This document shows, one piece after another, positions 11,759-20,415 of a DNA stretch of 64,000 bases. Below the pieces are notes generated by a model. It did not search any database and was not told the origin of the DNA. It saw only the letters and a program-made list of their open reading frames with translations. This DNA is from Corallococcus coralloides DSM 2259 (GTDB lineage Bacteria; Myxococcota; Myxococcia; Myxococcales; Myxococcaceae), in assembly GCF_000255295.1 (NCBI RefSeq), contig NC_017030.1, positions 6,230,328 to 6,294,327 of the forward strand, given 5' to 3'. The position numbers and the translations under genes are program-made. Position 1 is the first letter of the stretch. Every line of letters begins with the position of its first letter.

Positions 11759-14020
11759 TCAGTTCGAGTAGGCCGGGAGGTCGGCCAGTCGAATCTGCAG
11801 CTTCGTCACTTCGCCGGGACGGATGGGAGCGGACAACAGCTTGCTCGTACCGCCGGGGTCCTGCGGGTCCACCACGCGCAAACGGTACGTCCCGATGGGC
11901 AGGGGGAACTTGATCAACGGGGACGTGCCCAGCTGCGTGGCGCCGTCGAACACGGCCGCGTTCTTCGGCACGGTGTAGAGCGTCAGCCACCCCAGGCCCG
12001 CCTTCGCCGCCCCCTTCGAGGTGGTCGTGTCGAGCACCTCCGGGTTCTCCACCTGCGTGACGGTGGTGACGGGCTCCGGGGGCTGCTCCGAGGGCTCGGG
12101 CTTCGCGGGGCGCGTTTCCACCTTCGCCACCGCGGGCGCGTCCGTCGTGGCGGCGGGCTTCGTCTTGCGTCCGCCCTTGCCGGCGGGGGCCTTCTTCGTG
12201 TCCGCGGCAGTCGCGACCACCACCGGTTCGGGCGCGGGCGGCTCCGCCACCGGCTCGGGCTCGGGGGTCGTCTTCTGGACGAAGCCCGGCGGAGGACCGG
12301 AGGGCTTCGGCGGCCACTGTCCGTTCGCGGCGGGGTCCACGGGCGGAGCCGGATCCAGCTCCGCCTTCACCCACTGCTTCGCGGAGTCGAACGCCGGCAT
12401 GAACACGCGGCGCACGGGTTCGAGCGTCGCCAGCCAGGCCACGCCGCCCAGGAGGAGGAGCAGGAACAACCGCATGCCCCAGCCGGAGCCCTCTCGGGCG
12501 GGCGGGGCCACGGGGGGCGCTTCAATGGACTCCTCTTCCTCCACCTGGCGTGAGGGCCGCGTCGTGCCGCGCACCGGACGGGTCTTGAAGCGCTGGGTCT
12601 GGAGCTCGCTGGGCGGATCCATCAGCCCATCGGACTCGGCCGCGTCGCGGGCCTCGGTGGGCTCGGGCCGCGCGCTGGGACGGGCCCGCGAGGGCCGCAC
12701 GGCGTCAGCGGGAGGACGGATGACCCGGGGAACGGGCGTCCCGTCCGGACCCGAGGGCCGCTGCGCTCGCGGCGTCACGGCGGGCGTGTTGAGGCGAGAG
12801 GCGCGGGCCTCCACGGCTTCATTGGCGGGACGCGGAGTCGCGCGGGGCGCGGGCGCCGAGGACTCGGCCGCGGCGCGACGGACGGGCGTGGGCTTGAAGG
12901 ACGCCGCGACGTCCGCGGGCGGGGCCTCCGCGTGCGGCGACTTCACCTGCGCGGTGGCCGCGGAGGCGGACTGATCACTGCCCTCCTCCACCTGGAGCGC
13001 CCCGGCGGCCTCGCTGACGCGGGCGTCCTCGGCGCGGCTGGCCAGCTCCAGGAGCGTGCGCGTCTTCTGGCGCTTCTCCTCGAAGAGCTCGCCCATGACG
13101 GCGGTCATCTGGTCTTCGTCGAACAGCTCGGAGCCCAGCGTGGCCTCGATGGCGCGCGCCATCTCCCGGCAGGTGCCGAAGCGCTGGGTGGTGTCGCGCG
13201 ACAGGGCCTTGAGCACCACGGCTTCCAGCGCCTCCGGCACGGCCGCGTTGAGCGAGCGCGGCGCGGGGATGTCCCCGTCCACGATCTGCATCATCACGGC
13301 GGCTTCGCCGGGGGCGTTGAACAGGCGCTGTCCGGCCAGCAGCTCGTGGAGCATCACGCCCGTGGAGAACTGGTCGCTGCGGCCATCCAGGTCCTTGTTG
13401 CGCACCTGCTCTGGGGACATGTACCCGCTGGTCCCCTTCACGGTGCCCACCTGCGTGCGGCCCAGCTTGCCGCGCGCCTTGGCGATGCCGAAATCGATCA
13501 CCTTCACGACGCCGTCGTAGGTGATCATCACGTTCTTCGGGGACACGTCGCGGTGCACCACCGCCACGGGGCGGCCCGACGGATCCATGAAGTGGTGGGC
13601 GTAGTGCAGACCCAGGCACGTGTCGCGAATCACGCGCGCGCTGAAGCCCAGCGGCAGCGCGTACTTGCGCCGCTCCGCCATCTTCACCACCTGCTCGAGG
13701 TTCTGGCCGGGCAGGAACTCCATGGCGAGGTACAGCTCGCCGTCCTCCTCCCCCAGGTCGAACACCTGTCCGATGTTCGCGTGCGAGAAGGCCGCGGTGA
13801 TGCGCGCCTCGTCGAGGAACATCTTGACGAACTGGTCGTCCTTCTTGATGTCGGGGAGGATCTGCTTCACCGCCACGAACTTGCGGAAGCCACCGGGGCC
13901 GGAGGTGTACGCGAGGAACAGCTCCGCCATCCCGCCCATCGAGAGTCGGGTGAGGATCTCGTACTTTCCAATGCGCCGCCCCCGGTCGGGATCGTCTCCG
14001 GCGACTCCCTGCGTGCTCAT
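11759..14020 (-). CDS. Membrane Ser/Thr protein kinase with a C-terminal PEGA-like domain.
   Basis: 753 aa. Hanks kinase motifs (VAVK, HRDVSPKNV, DFGIAK, SGYMSPE) are followed by a Pro/Ala-rich linker, a TM segment LFLLLLLGGVAWLA, and a C-terminal beta domain (YTVPKNAAVFDG...GTYRLRVV). Confidence 0.85.
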   Translation of the reverse strand: MSTQGVAGDDPDRGRRIGKYEILTRLSMGGMAELFLAYTSGPGGFRKFVAVKQILPDIKKDDQFVKMFLDEARITAAFSHANIGQVFDLGEEDGELYLAMEFLPGQNLEQVVKMAERRKYALPLGFSARVIRDTCLGLHYAHHFMDPSGRPVAVVHRDVSPKNVMITYDGVVKVIDFGIAKARGKLGRTQVGTVKGTSGYMSPEQVRNKDLDGRSDQFSTGVMLHELLAGQRLFNAPGEAAVMMQIVDGDIPAPRSLNAAVPEALEAVVLKALSRDTTQRFGTCREMARAIEATLGSELFDEDQMTAVMGELFEEKRQKTRTLLELASRAEDARVSEAAGALQVEEGSDQSASAATAQVKSPHAEAPPADVAASFKPTPVRRAAAESSAPAPRATPRPANEAVEARASRLNTPAVTPRAQRPSGPDGTPVPRVIRPPADAVRPSRARPSARPEPTEARDAAESDGLMDPPSELQTQRFKTRPVRGTTRPSRQVEEEESIEAPPVAPPAREGSGWGMRLFLLLLLGGVAWLATLEPVRRVFMPAFDSAKQWVKAELDPAPPVDPAANGQWPPKPSGPPPGFVQKTTPEPEPVAEPPAPEPVVVATAADTKKAPAGKGGRKTKPAATTDAPAVAKVETRPAKPEPSEQPPEPVTTVTQVENPEVLDTTTSKGAAKAGLGWLTLYTVPKNAAVFDGATQLGTSPLIKFPLPIGTYRLRVVDPQDPGGTSKLLSAPIRPGEVTKLQIRLADLPAYSN

Positions 14021-14110: not shown

Positions 14111-14899
14111 TTAGGCGCCGAACCGCCGTCGCCGCACGTCGAGCATCCAGCCCTCAAGCGCGGCCACGGCCGGCGGTTGTGGCTCCAGAGGCAACACGGA
14201 GGCCGCGTCCGCCGCGTCGAGCACCGAGAAGGCGCGCGTCACCTCCTGCCGCCACTGCTCGCTGAGTTCTTCGGTCAGCTCGATGCGCTCACCGCTCCGC
14301 TTGCGCTCCACCAGCGCACGGGCTTCGCCAAAGCCATACGGCTCCAGCAGGACGGTGACGTCCGTCTCCATCTCGCCCGTGCGCAGCGCATGCGTTCCGG
14401 TGAGCGTGGTGCGCAGCACGTACAGCAACTTCTTCACGGAGCGGAATCCGCTCTTCTCCCACTCGCGCAACTGCCCCTGCGCGAAGCCGCGGTAGTGCCG
14501 GTGGATGCGCCGCGACAGCACGGCCCGCACCAGCGGCCGCAGCGCCTCCAGCTCCGGCAGGGCCCGCACGGTGATGGCCCCCAGCACCCGCTCGATGTAG
14601 TTGCCGTTGCCCTGGAGGATGCCCAGCAGCACGGGCTGCAGCTCATTGGACGAGTAGTCCACCTCCACGCCCTCCAGCACCTCCAGCCGTTCCGCCGGCA
14701 CGTGCCGGGGCTGGAGGCCGAGGAGCGCGGCGGTGGGCGCGATGTGGATGGCCTTGAGGTCCAGGTCGCTGTCATGCGACGGGAAGCCGTACGCATGCGC
14801 GCCGGACAGCGAGATGACCAGGTGCTCGCGCTGGAGGGACTCCTCGTCCAGCACGCGGTCCACCATGCGCTCCTGATGCTCCGTCACCCTGCCCTTCAT
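14111..14899 (-). CDS. Predicted nucleotidyltransferase (Pol-beta superfamily, PF10127-like), short paralogue.
   Basis: 262 aa with the minimal NTase motif SLSGAHAYGFPSHDSDLDLKAIH (GS-x9-DxD). The C-terminal helical region is shared with the upstream paralogue. A 4-nt overlap with the upstream gene indicates translational coupling. Confidence 0.65.
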   Translation of the reverse strand: MKGRVTEHQERMVDRVLDEESLQREHLVISLSGAHAYGFPSHDSDLDLKAIHIAPTAALLGLQPRHVPAERLEVLEGVEVDYSSNELQPVLLGILQGNGNYIERVLGAITVRALPELEALRPLVRAVLSRRIHRHYRGFAQGQLREWEKSGFRSVKKLLYVLRTTLTGTHALRTGEMETDVTVLLEPYGFGEARALVERKRSGERIELTEELSEQWRQEVTRAFSVLDAADAASVLPLEPQPPAVAALEGWMLDVRRRRFGA

Positions 14900-16185
14900 T
14901 CCGTCCCTCCTTCCAGCGCCGGAGCCTCCGGCGCGTCACGGCCCAGCGGGCCGGGCGTCTTCAAGACCCAGCGCCGCGCCACCTCGTCACCCACGCGACG
15001 CAGCAGCCGGTCCGCGCGGGCGTAATCCGGATGCTCCGGCAACCGGCTCTCGCGGTGCGCGGCCTCCAACGCCGGAGCCATCGCCTCGGCGTCGCGCAGC
15101 ACGTCCTCCAGTGGCACCTGGCCACCCTTGATGTCGAGCAGCCGCGCCTTCAACGCCCCCGTCGCCTCGAAGCCAGGCACCCCGTCGCGCAGCCAGCCCG
15201 TGGCCAGCGCCACCAGCCGCAGCAGGTTGTACGCGTTCTTCGGCCGCAGCTCCCGAGCGGACGGAGGACGCTGACCGCCGCCGCGCGCATACGCCGTGAG
15301 CGCCGCGAAGTCGTTCGACGCGAGCAGCCCCTGGTCCCAGAGCGAGCGGTAGAGCTGCTTGACGTACGTCTTCGCCGCGAGCACCGCGTCCTCGGCCGTG
15401 GGCGCGGCGCGGGGCGACACTGCGGCCAGGCGGCGGGCGACCTCGTCCAGGTCCGGCGTGGGCTCCTCGCACAACCACGCGAGGAGCAGGTCGCGGTGCT
15501 CCGCCAGCCGCTGGCTGCGGGTGAGCTTGTCGAGCTGGCTCATGGCGTAGCGCCCGAAGCTGCCGAAGATGGCCTTGGAGACGAACGCCTCGCGCGCCTC
15601 CAGCACCCACGTGCCCAGCTCGTCCACCGCCGTCGCGCCGGGGACGAAGAGGGTCTCCAGCGTGTTCGGATCCGCGCGCAGCGCCTGCTCCACCGTCTTG
15701 CGGACCTCCCAGTACGTGGTGCTGCCATCCGCGCTCACCAGGTCCTGCGGCGGCTGCCCCAGGCCCAGCGTCCACGGAAGCGGCAGCGCGAACACACCGC
15801 GCACGTCCACGTCGGAGCGCTCATCCGCGAGCCCCCACGCATGACTGCCCACGCGCGTCTCCAGCACCACGCACGGCCGCAGCGCGCCCCAGGCCGCCTC
15901 GCGCCGCTGAGCGAACTGCACCTGTCCCGCGCGCCGGGGCACCAGCTCGTCGCGCGCGAACCACACCTCGCCCACGCCGACGATCTGCACGTCGAAGCCA
16001 CCGTCATGCGCGCGCACCACGCGGCCCACCACGCCCTGGGGGATGCGGCGTCCCCCGGACGCCACGCGTTCCACGCGGGTGGTGACCTCGGTGCCATGCG
16101 GCAGGGGCACCGACAGCCGGTCGATCTGCTCCAGCCCCCGGACGCGCGCCGGAGCGGAGGAAGAAGTCTCGCGGGTGTCACTCAT
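14896..16185 (-). CDS. Predicted nucleotidyltransferase (Pol-beta superfamily, PF10127-like), long paralogue with an extra N-terminal beta domain.
   Basis: Start chosen at MSDTRETSS (ATG at 16185, RBS GGAGGG). NTase motif VGSHAWGLADERSDVDVRGVF. The C-terminal region KNAYNLLRLVALATGWLRDG parallels the paralogue's KKLLYVLRTTLTGTHALRTG. Confidence 0.65.
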   Translation of the reverse strand: MSDTRETSSSAPARVRGLEQIDRLSVPLPHGTEVTTRVERVASGGRRIPQGVVGRVVRAHDGGFDVQIVGVGEVWFARDELVPRRAGQVQFAQRREAAWGALRPCVVLETRVGSHAWGLADERSDVDVRGVFALPLPWTLGLGQPPQDLVSADGSTTYWEVRKTVEQALRADPNTLETLFVPGATAVDELGTWVLEAREAFVSKAIFGSFGRYAMSQLDKLTRSQRLAEHRDLLLAWLCEEPTPDLDEVARRLAAVSPRAAPTAEDAVLAAKTYVKQLYRSLWDQGLLASNDFAALTAYARGGGQRPPSARELRPKNAYNLLRLVALATGWLRDGVPGFEATGALKARLLDIKGGQVPLEDVLRDAEAMAPALEAAHRESRLPEHPDYARADRLLRRVGDEVARRWVLKTPGPLGRDAPEAPALEGGTE

Positions 16186-16263
16186 CGGTCCCTCCTGGAT
16201 GGGATGGTGGGCCACGCAGGACGCAGCGAAGCACACGAGCCTGACCCGGCACGGGGCTTCCCG

Positions 16264-17277
16264 TCAGCGCGCGATGCGTCGCGTGGTGGGCCGAGCAGGC
16301 AGCAGCCCTTCCACTTCGGATGCCAGGGGGAGCGCCGCCACCGCGCCCAGCTTCGTCACCACCCGGGCCCCCACGCCCGCCGCGAAGGTCATCAGCGCGA
16401 CCAATTCCTCGCGGGTCGCGTCCTCCAGCGAGCGCGCGTCGCCGTACCAGCGCACCAGGCCGCTCAACATCGCGGACACGAAGCCGTCACCGGCCCCCGT
16501 CGTGTCCACCACCGCCACCTGGGGCGCGGGAACGGAGACGATTTCGCCCCGCCAGAGGAACACCGCACCGCGAGGGCCCAGCGTCACCACGGGCAGCCGC
16601 ACGCCCTGCACGGCCAGCACATGCAGGGCGGCCTCGGGCGAGTGCTCGCCGGTCGCGAAGTGGATCTCCTCCTCGGACAGCTTCACCACCGTGCACAGCG
16701 GGAGCATGCGCCCCAGGAGGACTCGCAGCTCCTCGGGCTGCGTCCACATGTGCAGCCGCAGGTTCGGATCACAGCTCACCAGCATCCCGGCCTCACGCGC
16801 CAGGGTGAGCATGCGCACCATCGCCTCGCGCGCCTCCGGCAGGAGCAGGGAGTTGGAGCCGCAGTGCAGCGCCTTCGCGCGCCGCACGAAGCCACCGTCC
16901 ACGTCGGAGTCGTCCAGCAGGAACTCCGCTGACCGCGTCCGGAAGTACGTGAAGCTGCGCTCGCCATGCGCGTCCAGCGAGACGAACAACAGGCCCGTGC
17001 GCGCATGGTCCACCTGGCGCAGGCGGCTTACGTCCACGCCGTCCGCCGCCAACCGGTCGCGCAGGAAGTGACCGAACTCGTCGGAGCCCACCACGCCCAC
17101 CATCGCCGAGCGCAGGCCCAACCGCGAGAGCCCCACGGAGACGTTGGCCGGTGAGCCCCCTGGCGATGGCTTCCAGGCCTCCACGTCCCGCACGCGAGTA
17201 GCGCCGCCGGCCACGGGAAGGAAGTCCACCAGCGTTTCGCCGACACACACCACGTCCAGCGGCCCGGCTTCGTACAT
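16264..17277 (-). CDS. PfkB-family carbohydrate kinase (ribokinase/fructokinase-like).
   Basis: 337 aa with a VVCVGETLVD N-terminus and the DTTGAGD anion-hole motif. Confidence 0.85.
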   Translation of the reverse strand: MYEAGPLDVVCVGETLVDFLPVAGGATRVRDVEAWKPSPGGSPANVSVGLSRLGLRSAMVGVVGSDEFGHFLRDRLAADGVDVSRLRQVDHARTGLLFVSLDAHGERSFTYFRTRSAEFLLDDSDVDGGFVRRAKALHCGSNSLLLPEAREAMVRMLTLAREAGMLVSCDPNLRLHMWTQPEELRVLLGRMLPLCTVVKLSEEEIHFATGEHSPEAALHVLAVQGVRLPVVTLGPRGAVFLWRGEIVSVPAPQVAVVDTTGAGDGFVSAMLSGLVRWYGDARSLEDATREELVALMTFAAGVGARVVTKLGAVAALPLASEVEGLLPARPTTRRIAR

Positions 17278-17309: not shown

Positions 17310-18044
17310 TCAGTCCAGGCCCACCTGCGCCATGAAGTCCACGCTCTTGAGCTTGCGGCCCACGTGGTGCGCGATGAAGACGTTGAGCAGGCCCCGAGCC
17401 CGCGCGCGGAGGTCCGCGGGCAGCGGCGTGCGCTGACCTTCCTGAAGCGAGCGCAGCCCGGCCAGCAACGCCACCGGCACCGGCACCGAGTCACGCGCGC
17501 GTCCGCCACACGGCTCGCACACCGCGCCACCGTGGCCCTGGTCGAACCGGGGCCGCTCGCCGGGCAGACCGCCACACAGCGCGCAGGAGTCGAACCGGGG
17601 CATCAACCCCGCCTGCGCCAGCGCCGCCAGCTCGAACGCGAGCAGCGACGTGGGCCCGGCCTCCTTCGCGTCCAGCCGGTGCAGGTAGCCCTCCACCAGC
17701 TCGAACAGCTCCGGGTGCGGTTCATGTTCGCGCGTGAGCTCGCGGCACAGCTCCACCGCGTACAGCGCCCGGGCAATCAGCGACAGGTCCTCGCGCGCGG
17801 CGTAGAAGCCCGCGACGATGTCCGCCGAATCGATCCGGACCGTGCTGCCGCGAGTCTCCACGAGCTGCACGCGCAACCGCATGAACGGCTCCAGCGCCCC
17901 CGCGAACCGGCGCTTGCTCTTGCGCGCACCCGCGGCGAACGCGGTCAGCTTGCCGTGCTCACGCGTGAGCAGCGTCACCAGCCGGTCGGACTCACCATAG
18001 TCGACCGTGGACAGCACGAACGCGTCGTCGGCGTACCGCTCCAT
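17310..18044 (-). CDS. recO: DNA repair protein RecO.
   Basis: 244 aa. An OB-fold N-terminus (AFVLSTVDYGESDRLVTLLTREHGKL) plus C-terminal Cys pairs CALCGG...CEPCGG (zinc motif). Confidence 0.85.
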   Translation of the reverse strand: MERYADDAFVLSTVDYGESDRLVTLLTREHGKLTAFAAGARKSKRRFAGALEPFMRLRVQLVETRGSTVRIDSADIVAGFYAAREDLSLIARALYAVELCRELTREHEPHPELFELVEGYLHRLDAKEAGPTSLLAFELAALAQAGLMPRFDSCALCGGLPGERPRFDQGHGGAVCEPCGGRARDSVPVPVALLAGLRSLQEGQRTPLPADLRARARGLLNVFIAHHVGRKLKSVDFMAQVGLD

Positions 18045-19731: not shown

Positions 19732-20415
19732 CTAACGGGTGGTGAGCGTGAACTCCTCGGTCGCGTCCTGCACGTCCGCAGCCGTCTTCTGGAAGCGGAT
19801 GAGGGGCGTGTCAATCATCACGTTGCCGCCGCCCTCGTTCCCCTCACCGATGATCACCTTGAAGACGTTCCCGGGCGACGTGCTGCGGCGGCTGCCCGTG
19901 TTCTGCTTGCGGGCAATCAGCGTCACCGCGTTCGCGCCGGGACGCAACTGGCTGGTGATGTCCACCACCACCTGGTCCTCGTTGTTGCGCAAACGGCGCA
20001 GCCAGCGCGAGTTCACGTACACGTCGATGTCGAAGTCCGTCATGCCCGGCGTCGTCTGCTCCGTCACCAGCCAGTAGCGCTGGGTGATGCGTCCCGGCGC
20101 GGCCGGGGAAGCCGCGGGAGCGGCCGGCGCGGGCGCCTGCGCGACGACCCCCGCGTCCACCGGGGCGGCGGCCGGAGGCGTGGCGGTGGAAGGCGTCGCG
20201 GGCGTGGGCGTCACGTTCGTCACGCGGGCGGCGTACCCCGGCGCGTCGATGTGGACGTTCCCTTCCGCGTCGATGCGGACGGTGGCCTTCTCGAAGCGCG
20301 TGTTCGTCACGCCGTCGATCTTCACGCCGTTCAGGAAGACCGAGCCGGCCAGGGCCAGCATGGGGACGAGCGAGGCCGCGACGGTGATGGCAATGCGGGC
20401 GGACGGACGGGGCAT
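19732..20415 (-). CDS. Secreted hypothetical protein with a Pro/Ala/Thr-rich linker.
   Basis: 227 aa with signal peptide MPRPSARIAITVAASLVPMLALAGS. The GAGGAGG RBS sits inside a small hairpin just upstream. Confidence 0.55.
   Translation of the reverse strand: MPRPSARIAITVAASLVPMLALAGSVFLNGVKIDGVTNTRFEKATVRIDAEGNVHIDAPGYAARVTNVTPTPATPSTATPPAAAPVDAGVVAQAPAPAAPAASPAAPGRITQRYWLVTEQTTPGMTDFDIDVYVNSRWLRRLRNNEDQVVVDITSQLRPGANAVTLIARKQNTGSRRSTSPGNVFKVIIGEGNEGGGNVMIDTPLIRFQKTAADVQDATEEFTLTTR

Follow-up and report, generated by a model that had tools for sequence, protein, structure and literature searches.

Two adjacent genes of Corallococcus coralloides DSM 2259, here named rlaP-A and rlaP-B, encode a long (429 amino acids, aa) and a short (262 aa) member of the RlaP nucleotidyltransferase (NTase) family, and their products probably assemble into a heterodimeric enzyme that adds nucleotides to RNA 3′ ends and has an active site in each subunit. 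The genes lie in a 64,000-nucleotide (nt) stretch of the chromosome (NCBI assembly GCF_000255295.1, contig NC_017030.1, forward-strand positions 6,230,328–6,294,327), referred to below as the window, with a G+C content of ∼70% in the region. An earlier sequence-only reading of this DNA had described a translationally coupled pair of paralogous NTases and suggested that they could be subunits of one enzyme. Both proteins clearly belong to RlaP, so that the pair does not amount to a new kind of system; what we did not find described in the literature checked is the pairing and fusion of the two modules, the SH3-like N-terminal domain and the insertion in the long subunit, and the habitual separation of the pair from RNA ligases.

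Both proteins match PF10127, the Pfam family RlaP (‘RNA repair pathway DNA polymerase beta family’), above its gathering threshold of 23 bits. RlaP-B scores 93.4 bits over model positions 21–248 of 249, whereas RlaP-A scores 73.3 bits over positions 20–144, only the first half of the model, because an 86-aa insertion displaces the remainder. On this profile evidence both are RlaP NTases of the DNA polymerase beta (Pol-beta) superfamily, as the sequence-only reading had suspected. Each fits the Pol-beta signature hG[GS]-x9-13-DxD, with a third carboxylate on the next strand of the AlphaFold2 (AF2) models described below. In RlaP-A the motif GSHAWGLADERSDVD (15805–15849) contains G113-S114 and D125-x-D127, and the third carboxylate is E160 (15706–15708); in RlaP-B the motif GAHAYGFPSHDSDLD (14759–14803) contains G33-A34 and D45-x-D47, followed by D81 (14657–14659). 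The minimal motifs thus stand where they had been placed from the sequence, but their spacing is G[SA]-x10-DxD rather than x9.

The two catalytic triads, D125/D127/E160 and D45/D47/D81, are invariant in a 98-sequence alignment of the window pair with 97 natural fusions of 32–40% identity, and likewise within each orthologue set and in 41 fusion proteins. Comparison with eight orthologous loci by the Nei-Gojobori method gave ratios of nonsynonymous to synonymous substitution rates (dN/dS) of 0.07–0.21 for the long gene and 0.24–0.41 for the short gene. Both genes are under purifying selection, the short subunit evolving two to three times faster than the long. Neither copy is therefore a degenerate duplicate lacking its catalytic carboxylates, a possibility that the sequence-only reading had raised against itself. 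Direct similarity between the two proteins is weak: BLASTP aligns only 33 aa at 39% identity (E 2e-4), confined to the NTase core, and hhalign of the two orthologue sets covers 69 columns of the same core at low probability, the alignments being shallow. We conclude that RlaP-A and RlaP-B are old paralogues and not the outcome of a recent duplication. The shared C-terminal helical region that had been noted holds at the level of motifs (KNAYNLLRL against KKLLYVLR) and Pfam coverage, but does not extend to direct sequence similarity.

Orthologues of each protein, 63–98% identical, occur across the Myxococcaceae, the Archangiaceae and related metagenome-assembled genomes (MAGs), and most of the myxococcal genera sampled have both genes; for the long protein, identity to the proteins of Corallococcus exiguus and its close relatives is 98%. 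In NCBI and UniRef, many records of orthologues give the 429-aa protein the name ‘UDP-phosphate N-acetylglucosaminyl 1-phosphate transferase’ or ‘Undecaprenyl-phosphate ...’. Since PF10127 alone matches the protein, this naming looks like a propagated misannotation. NCBIfam and PADLOC searches returned no matches for either protein, and no Protein Data Bank (PDB) chain related by sequence was found for either protein or for the fusion profile, a profile search included. Relatives of the pair in a phage collection are distant RlaPs, 23–41% identical in the core, and none matched over most of the long protein.

The arrangement of the two genes is that expected of coupled expression. The TGA of rlaP-A and the ATG of rlaP-B share bases in an ATGA overlap, as had been noted from the sequence, and each gene has its own ribosome-binding site, that of rlaP-B lying within the 3′ end of rlaP-A. 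The longest possible open reading frame (ORF) of rlaP-A begins at a GTG at 16236 and would encode 446 aa; the 429-aa start is preferred because homologue N-termini and the ribosome-binding site favour the ATG at 16185.

This arrangement is widely conserved. Two scans confirmed 375 and 412 relatives, the best 80 of each being retained, and 169 loci were gathered from species-representative genomes, metagenomes and contig look-ups. The long gene is followed directly by the short gene in 109 of the 169 loci, and the two are joined in a single ORF in 30 more. Pairing is thus seen in 139 of the ∼153 loci whose sequence continues far enough past the long gene, and the order is long then short in every one of the 139. 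Four loci fall outside the adjacency criterion (one with the short gene 7 kb downstream and three with apparently overlapping or interrupted frames), and, apart from a group that has no detectable short gene and is considered below, the remaining loci are truncated. Of 107 split pairs, 71 share precisely 4 nt, and most of the others are within 10 nt. When the 74 paired loci that have at least 3 kb on each side were compared, at least 34 unrelated contexts could be told apart, and all-against-all clustering of the ORFs that flank 165 loci found no third gene family that tracks the pair. A check of gene neighbourhoods, which the sequence-only reading had proposed, thus identifies the long-short pair itself as the conserved unit.

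The strongest evidence for a physical association comes from natural fusions. An exhaustive HMMER search of cluster representatives identified many proteins of 640–725 aa that match the long protein in two stretches, and one fusion used as query returned ∼398 relatives, most of them 640–725 aa among the matches listed, mainly from MAGs labelled Myxococcota, Deltaproteobacteria and Vicinamibacteria. In these proteins an N-terminal domain is followed by an NTase and helical domain of the long type (RPKNAYNLLRL) and, after a linker that varies, by a short-type module (GAHAYGFPSPDSDLDLK ... GNGN ... HYRGF ... LLYAYRVALTG). Fusion in gene order with the active sites kept is a classic sign of one physical unit. 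Because the fusions preserve both the order and the two active sites, and because the coupling of the split genes is conserved, we adopt the heterodimer reading; the case for it is strong, the fusions giving independent support to what had been an idea from the sequence. Two further relatives were set aside. A 671-aa protein (P0265) has a DTW domain, of the tRNA aminocarboxypropyltransferase family, N-terminal to a long-type RlaP; it is arginine-rich, looks frameshift-garbled and probably represents two merged neighbouring genes. A 592-aa relative (P0262) was disregarded since its sequence is apparently frameshift-garbled. Unusually long stretches of 625–777 nt without a called gene precede two fusion genes (L007:7376–8000 and L008:7225–8000), and no convincing ORF was found in them.

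RlaP-A comprises, in order, an SH3-like N-terminal domain, the NTase core, the 86-aa helical insertion and a C-terminal helical domain. An AF2 model built with 34 close orthologues included the NTase and helical parts and left residues 1–84 unmodelled, with predicted local distance difference test (pLDDT) values below 50. A second run, in which the window long and short proteins were joined end to end and aligned with 97 natural fusions, gave a mean pLDDT of 89. In this model residues 21–85 (pLDDT 80–94) form five β-strands, in agreement with the extra β-rich domain that had been read from the sequence, and the domain, which a Pfam search did not recognise, is modelled as an SH3-like barrel of the KOW/Tudor type. 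RNA- and DNA-binding proteins are among its structural neighbours, many members of the KOW/Tudor group bind nucleic acids, and the domain probably holds the nucleic-acid substrate. For both modules AF2 predicts an NTase domain followed by a helical domain.

The insertion was delimited with a 301-aa protein, P0343, which lacks it and represents the ∼300-aa relatives that have the N-terminal domain and an RlaP module. BLASTP aligns residues 26–224 and 311–397 of RlaP-A with this protein and skips 225–310. A 301-aa protein of this kind, likewise without the insertion, is followed at one locus (L172:6001–7655) with a 1-nt overlap by a B-type RlaP of 249 aa, which shares 36% identity with the window short subunit; the pairing therefore predates the insertion.

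Activity has been reported for the family, so that the function is better characterised than the sequence-only reading had allowed. The name RlaP refers to the RNA-ligase linkage described by Burroughs and Aravind, who predicted a role for it in replacing the nucleotides that cleaved RNAs have lost (as cited in PMC7824862 and PMC12776372). A preprint of December 2025 by Carruthers, Fatma and Huang describes RlaPs from Pseudomonas fluorescens and P. aeruginosa, whose genes stand between rtcB and rtcA (PMC12776372). These enzymes add one or two nucleoside monophosphates (NMPs), or their deoxy equivalents, to the 3′-OH of RNA, with a preference for Mn2+; they are inactive on DNA and protein, and among E. 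coli RNA, genomic DNA and protein fractions they label RNA alone (PMC12776372). They favour a mimic of nicked tRNA and partly restore the aminoacylation of a tRNA lacking one anticodon-loop nucleotide, and what limits addition to one or two nucleotides is unknown according to the authors (PMC12776372). The crystal structure of the P. fluorescens enzyme shows an N-terminal NTase and a C-terminal helical domain that together form a cleft (PMC12776372).

Three of the loci examined carry a link of their own to RNA repair. At L004:6022–10046 a fused gene of two RlaP modules (681 aa) is divergent from a full-length RtcR gene, whose product shares 56% identity with E. coli RtcR over 534 residues, with no rtcBA adjoining. 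At L082:10001–17826 the distance from a split pair to rtcR is ∼2.6 kb, and rtcR is itself divergent from rtcB-rtcA; a good σ54 promoter, TGGCACGCCGGCTGCT, precedes rtcB, its E. coli equivalent being TGGCACGACGGTTGCA. The short gene at this locus matches over 93 aa only, and may be frameshifted in the MAG. At L100:2307–2534 a fragment of 77 aa that has 42% identity to the C-terminal end of E. coli RtcB is encoded on the opposite strand ∼600 nt upstream of a fusion; it falls outside any ORF of at least 120 aa and may be a pseudogene remnant. L004 and L082 have no common neighbour except RtcR. By an informal, rough estimate, three such cases in ∼34 contexts are more than expected by chance, the expectation being well under one.

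The reading we favour, and hold to be probable as a whole, brings these observations together in the following way. Translation coupled through the ATGA overlap would deliver A and B in matched amounts, and the two would assemble into a heterodimer, whose counterpart in other lineages is one fused polypeptide. The heterodimer would have two different active sites, both predicted to be catalytically competent, with the KOW/Tudor-like domain and the HEPN-like helical domains binding RNA. By analogy with Pseudomonas RlaP, the enzyme would most likely transfer one or two NMPs from nucleoside triphosphates (NTPs) to an RNA 3′-OH, probably in a Mn2+-dependent manner, and each site would be capable of NMP transfer. 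Candidate substrates are nuclease-trimmed tRNA or rRNA ends, which might be rebuilt for resealing by a ligase encoded elsewhere, such as RtcB. Several characterised RtcB ligase paralogues are present in Myxococcus xanthus (Maughan and Shuman 2015, as cited in PMC10630183), and ligases acting in trans are therefore plausible. More speculatively, the sites could differ in the step they perform or the nucleotide they add, or, alternatively, each cleft could be completed by the helical domain of its partner. Our confidence in an RNA 3′-end substrate, drawn from the family analogy, is moderate, and that in a role in RNA repair, with end rebuilding before ligation, is weaker. The earlier suggestion of signal-nucleotide synthesis gives way here to RNA-end modification, which is better supported through the Pseudomonas enzyme (PMC12776372).

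A more specific version, possible but doubtful, is that the pair is an obligate hetero-bifunctional rebuilder of RNA ends, in which non-equivalent sites make distinct, ordered additions, for example of the two nucleotides lost to ‘smart’ ribotoxins from the tRNA anticodon loop or 3′ end, on RNA positioned by the KOW/Tudor-like domain. The pair would then represent a hitherto unrecognised branch of bacterial RNA repair, ligase-independent and conserved across the Myxococcota, controlled by RtcR in some lineages.

Several observations weigh against a heterodimeric RNA-end enzyme. Fourteen loci have the long gene with no detectable short gene despite at least 900 bases of downstream sequence (L050–L056, L058, L073 and the metagenome loci L115, L141, L154, L156 and L166); the full 10 kb downstream was searched in seven of them, L051–L056 and L058, which belong to a Hyalangium-like clade. 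At such loci A may act alone, or B may be encoded elsewhere. The predicted template modelling score (pTM) of the concatenated AF2 model is just 0.59, and the placement of the modules and the geometry of the dimer are not fixed by it. The characterised RlaPs are single-subunit enzymes, and activity is carried over to the two-subunit clade by family analogy. The 64-kb window contains no RNA ligase, RtcR or other repair gene, and Rtc genes are absent from the great majority of contexts, the three loci described above being the only cases among ∼165. The linkage behind the family's name is thus missing from the window, though it concerns genomic context and does not define the family by sequence. 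The fusion gene at L004 has a σ54-like element, TGGCAC-N5-TTTTC, ∼125 nt before its ATG, with a perfect −24 element and a poor −12 element; in view of the latter we do not claim a promoter there, and no σ54-like site is visible by eye upstream of rlaP-A in the window. As a separate observation, a convergent 241-aa gene directly follows the long gene in three of the loci without a short gene.

Some of these points would also suit two independent RlaPs that remained adjacent after an old tandem duplication and form no complex: characterised RlaPs have been studied as single polypeptides (PMC12776372), the long gene stands alone at 14 loci, one relative with the N-terminal domain (L171) is solitary, and a pTM of 0.59 establishes no interface. 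We nevertheless consider this rather unlikely, given fusions that follow the gene order and keep both active sites invariant, 4-nt coupling in two-thirds of the split pairs, and a pair that moves as a unit through so many contexts; the great divergence of the paralogues, moreover, implies that adjacency has long been kept and is not left over from a recent duplication. The observations on the short subunit raise another question, namely whether one partner is a catalytically dead scaffold or regulator. Its first motif has G-A in place of the usual G-S, residue 34 being Ala or Gly, and its faster evolution would fit such a role, but all three carboxylates are invariant in both modules down to 32% identity, and the G-[GS] motif tolerates Gly, with G-G found in some orthologues. 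A pseudoenzyme paired with an enzyme is for these reasons very unlikely.

Two other functions can be set against the heterodimeric RNA-end enzyme. The pair could be a conflict or defence module, whether an NTase toxin that modifies tRNA 3′ ends, like MenT or AbiEii, with its partner, or a synthase of signal oligonucleotides like HalB of the Hailong system or the CD-NTases. Against this, PADLOC gives no matches; there is no conserved effector, channel, HEPN RNase motif or mobile-element gene beside the pair; both genes show purifying selection and occur in most of the myxococcal genera sampled; the window pair lies in a core region; and a toxin-antitoxin fusion that keeps both active sites invariant would be unusual. 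We judge this possibility quite unlikely. Modification of an antibiotic or metabolite by a small-molecule NTase dimer with composite active sites, like the kanamycin and lincosamide NTases, is most improbable. The likeness is at the level of the fold only; the profile places both proteins in RlaP, with no match to ANT, Lnu or resistance models in Pfam or NCBIfam; the KOW/Tudor-like barrel and the RtcR and rtcBA neighbours point to RNA; and RNA was the only fraction labelled by the Pseudomonas enzyme (PMC12776372).

Coordinates of the rlaP pair, its parts and its neighbours in the window
Feature	Position	Strand	Remarks
rlaP-A, long subunit, 429 aa	14896..16185	-	ORF; PF10127 73.3 bits; orthologues; dN/dS
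rlaP-B, short subunit, 262 aa, NTase and helical domain	14111..14899	-	PF10127 93.4 bits; alignment; dN/dS
Ribosome-binding site of rlaP-A, AGGAGGG, 4-nt spacer to ATG at 16185	16190..16196	-	Sequence read
Ribosome-binding site of rlaP-B, GGAGGG, within 3′ end of rlaP-A, 5 nt before ATG	14905..14910	-	Sequence read
ATGA overlap, rlaP-A TGA (14898-14896) with rlaP-B ATG (14899-14897)	14896..14899	-	Coupling point
SH3-like barrel of rlaP-A, five strands, KOW/Tudor type, aa 21-85	15931..16125	-	Putative nucleic-acid-binding (model); many invariant Arg and Gly
NTase core of rlaP-A, aa 100-224	15514..15888	-	Pfam, alignments
Helical insertion of rlaP-A, 86 aa, aa 225-310	15256..15513	-	BLASTP against P0343
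C-terminal helical domain of rlaP-A, aa 311-409, invariant RPKNAYNLLRL	14959..15255	-	
recO	17310-18044	-	Neighbour
PfkB-family kinase, upstream of rlaP-A	16264-17277	-	Neighbour
Ser/Thr protein kinase, downstream of rlaP-B	11759-14020	-	Neighbour

The genes around the pair do not belong to the system. On the minus strand the order is recO, the PfkB kinase, rlaP-A, rlaP-B, the Ser/Thr protein kinase (STPK), glyQ and glyS, all co-oriented, with rpoB and rpoC ∼8 kb away on the other side of the locus; the presence of recO, glyQS and rpoBC nearby places the pair in the core chromosome. The PfkB kinase and the STPK are thus the flanking genes, in the orientation given by the sequence-only reading, but they were rejected as functional partners since their synteny is confined to Corallococcus: when the window neighbours were compared by tblastn with 88 loci, the recO-pfkB...STPK-glyQS flanks were found in that genus only. 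An STPK is the sole widely recurring neighbour, lying within 7 kb in 36 loci; we treat this as chance because myxobacteria have very many such kinases and shared synteny accounts for much of the count. Scans for σ70 promoters, terminators and Rfam families around the pair found nothing.

Some further observations concern individual sequences. A 227-aa ORF elsewhere in the window (19732–20415, minus strand) has a signal-peptide-like N-terminus, an Ala/Pro-rich linker and no Pfam match. The locus L024 (BNCN01000014.1), from a record titled ‘Comamonas sp. KCTC 72670’, is 87% identical at the protein level and syntenic with Myxococcus loci, and the assembly is probably mislabelled or contaminated. 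At L170:5485–7414 genes for an AHH-nuclease toxin and an Imm11 immunity protein lie ∼1.5 kb downstream of one RlaP pair, a single case.

The pair points to a widespread sub-architecture in which two different RlaP modules are joined by coupled translation or by fusion and an SH3-like domain is added, usually apart from a ligase. If the two sites share the rebuilding of trimmed ends, this would bear on how addition stops at one or two nucleotides, and myxobacteria would have a dedicated end-healing enzyme. The finding makes the need for two active sites a testable question, and the natural fusions can serve directly as single-chain constructs for biochemical and structural studies. The assignment also corrects the database annotation of many orthologues.

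Comparison with known systems sets the pair apart from the NTases of conflict and signalling systems. MNT-HEPN toxin-antitoxin pairs consist of proteins of ∼100–150 aa, whereas both proteins here are much larger, each carries an NTase and a helical domain in cis, and fusions exist. The sequence-only reading had already set this class aside, and there is indeed no conserved Rx4-6H motif and no PADLOC or NCBIfam match; the short-subunit helical motif LSxRxxxHYRGF has an R-x3-H spacing, and its Arg is not invariant. The distant resemblance to CD-NTases that had also been proposed found no support, with no match to the CD-NTase (SMODS) profile in Pfam or PADLOC and no conserved neighbouring effector. 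HalB of the Hailong system (PDB 9dbh, 9dbj) is a protein of ∼220 aa that makes oligodeoxyadenylate signals and has HalA as its partner effector; the likeness is one of fold only, at 12–15% identity, and the pair lies outside any defence-island context. No such partner, nor any other third gene, is conserved beside the pair in the at least 34 contexts, and the PADLOC release used, v2.0.0, may be older than Hailong. Kanamycin nucleotidyltransferase ANT(4′) and its relatives work as homodimers on small molecules and are in most cases encoded by resistance genes; their dimeric arrangement is the precedent for clefts completed by a partner.

A functional parallel may be found in the split CCA system. 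In Aquifex and Deinococcus the CC-adding and A-adding tRNA nucleotidyltransferases are separate enzymes, so that two paralogous NTases of the Pol-beta superfamily, each with its own intact active site, share out successive template-independent additions at an RNA 3′ end, as the two sites of the RlaP pair could do. This is an analogy only: those proteins are class II CCA enzymes and not members of PF10127, and to our knowledge their genes are neither overlapping nor fused.

The nearest relatives are the RlaPs themselves, from P. fluorescens, P. aeruginosa and phage T4 (NrdC.11), which share with the pair the carboxylate triad and the Pfam match, as well as an NTase domain followed by a helical domain, predicted by AF2 in the case of the pair; the RtcR/rtcBA context of the Pseudomonas genes is shared by a minority of the pair loci. 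In contrast to these single polypeptides, the pair consists of two divergent paralogues, adjacent or fused and usually with no linked RNA ligase, in which the A subunit adds an SH3-like N-terminal domain and the 86-aa helical insertion, and it is a chromosomal feature found across the Myxococcota.

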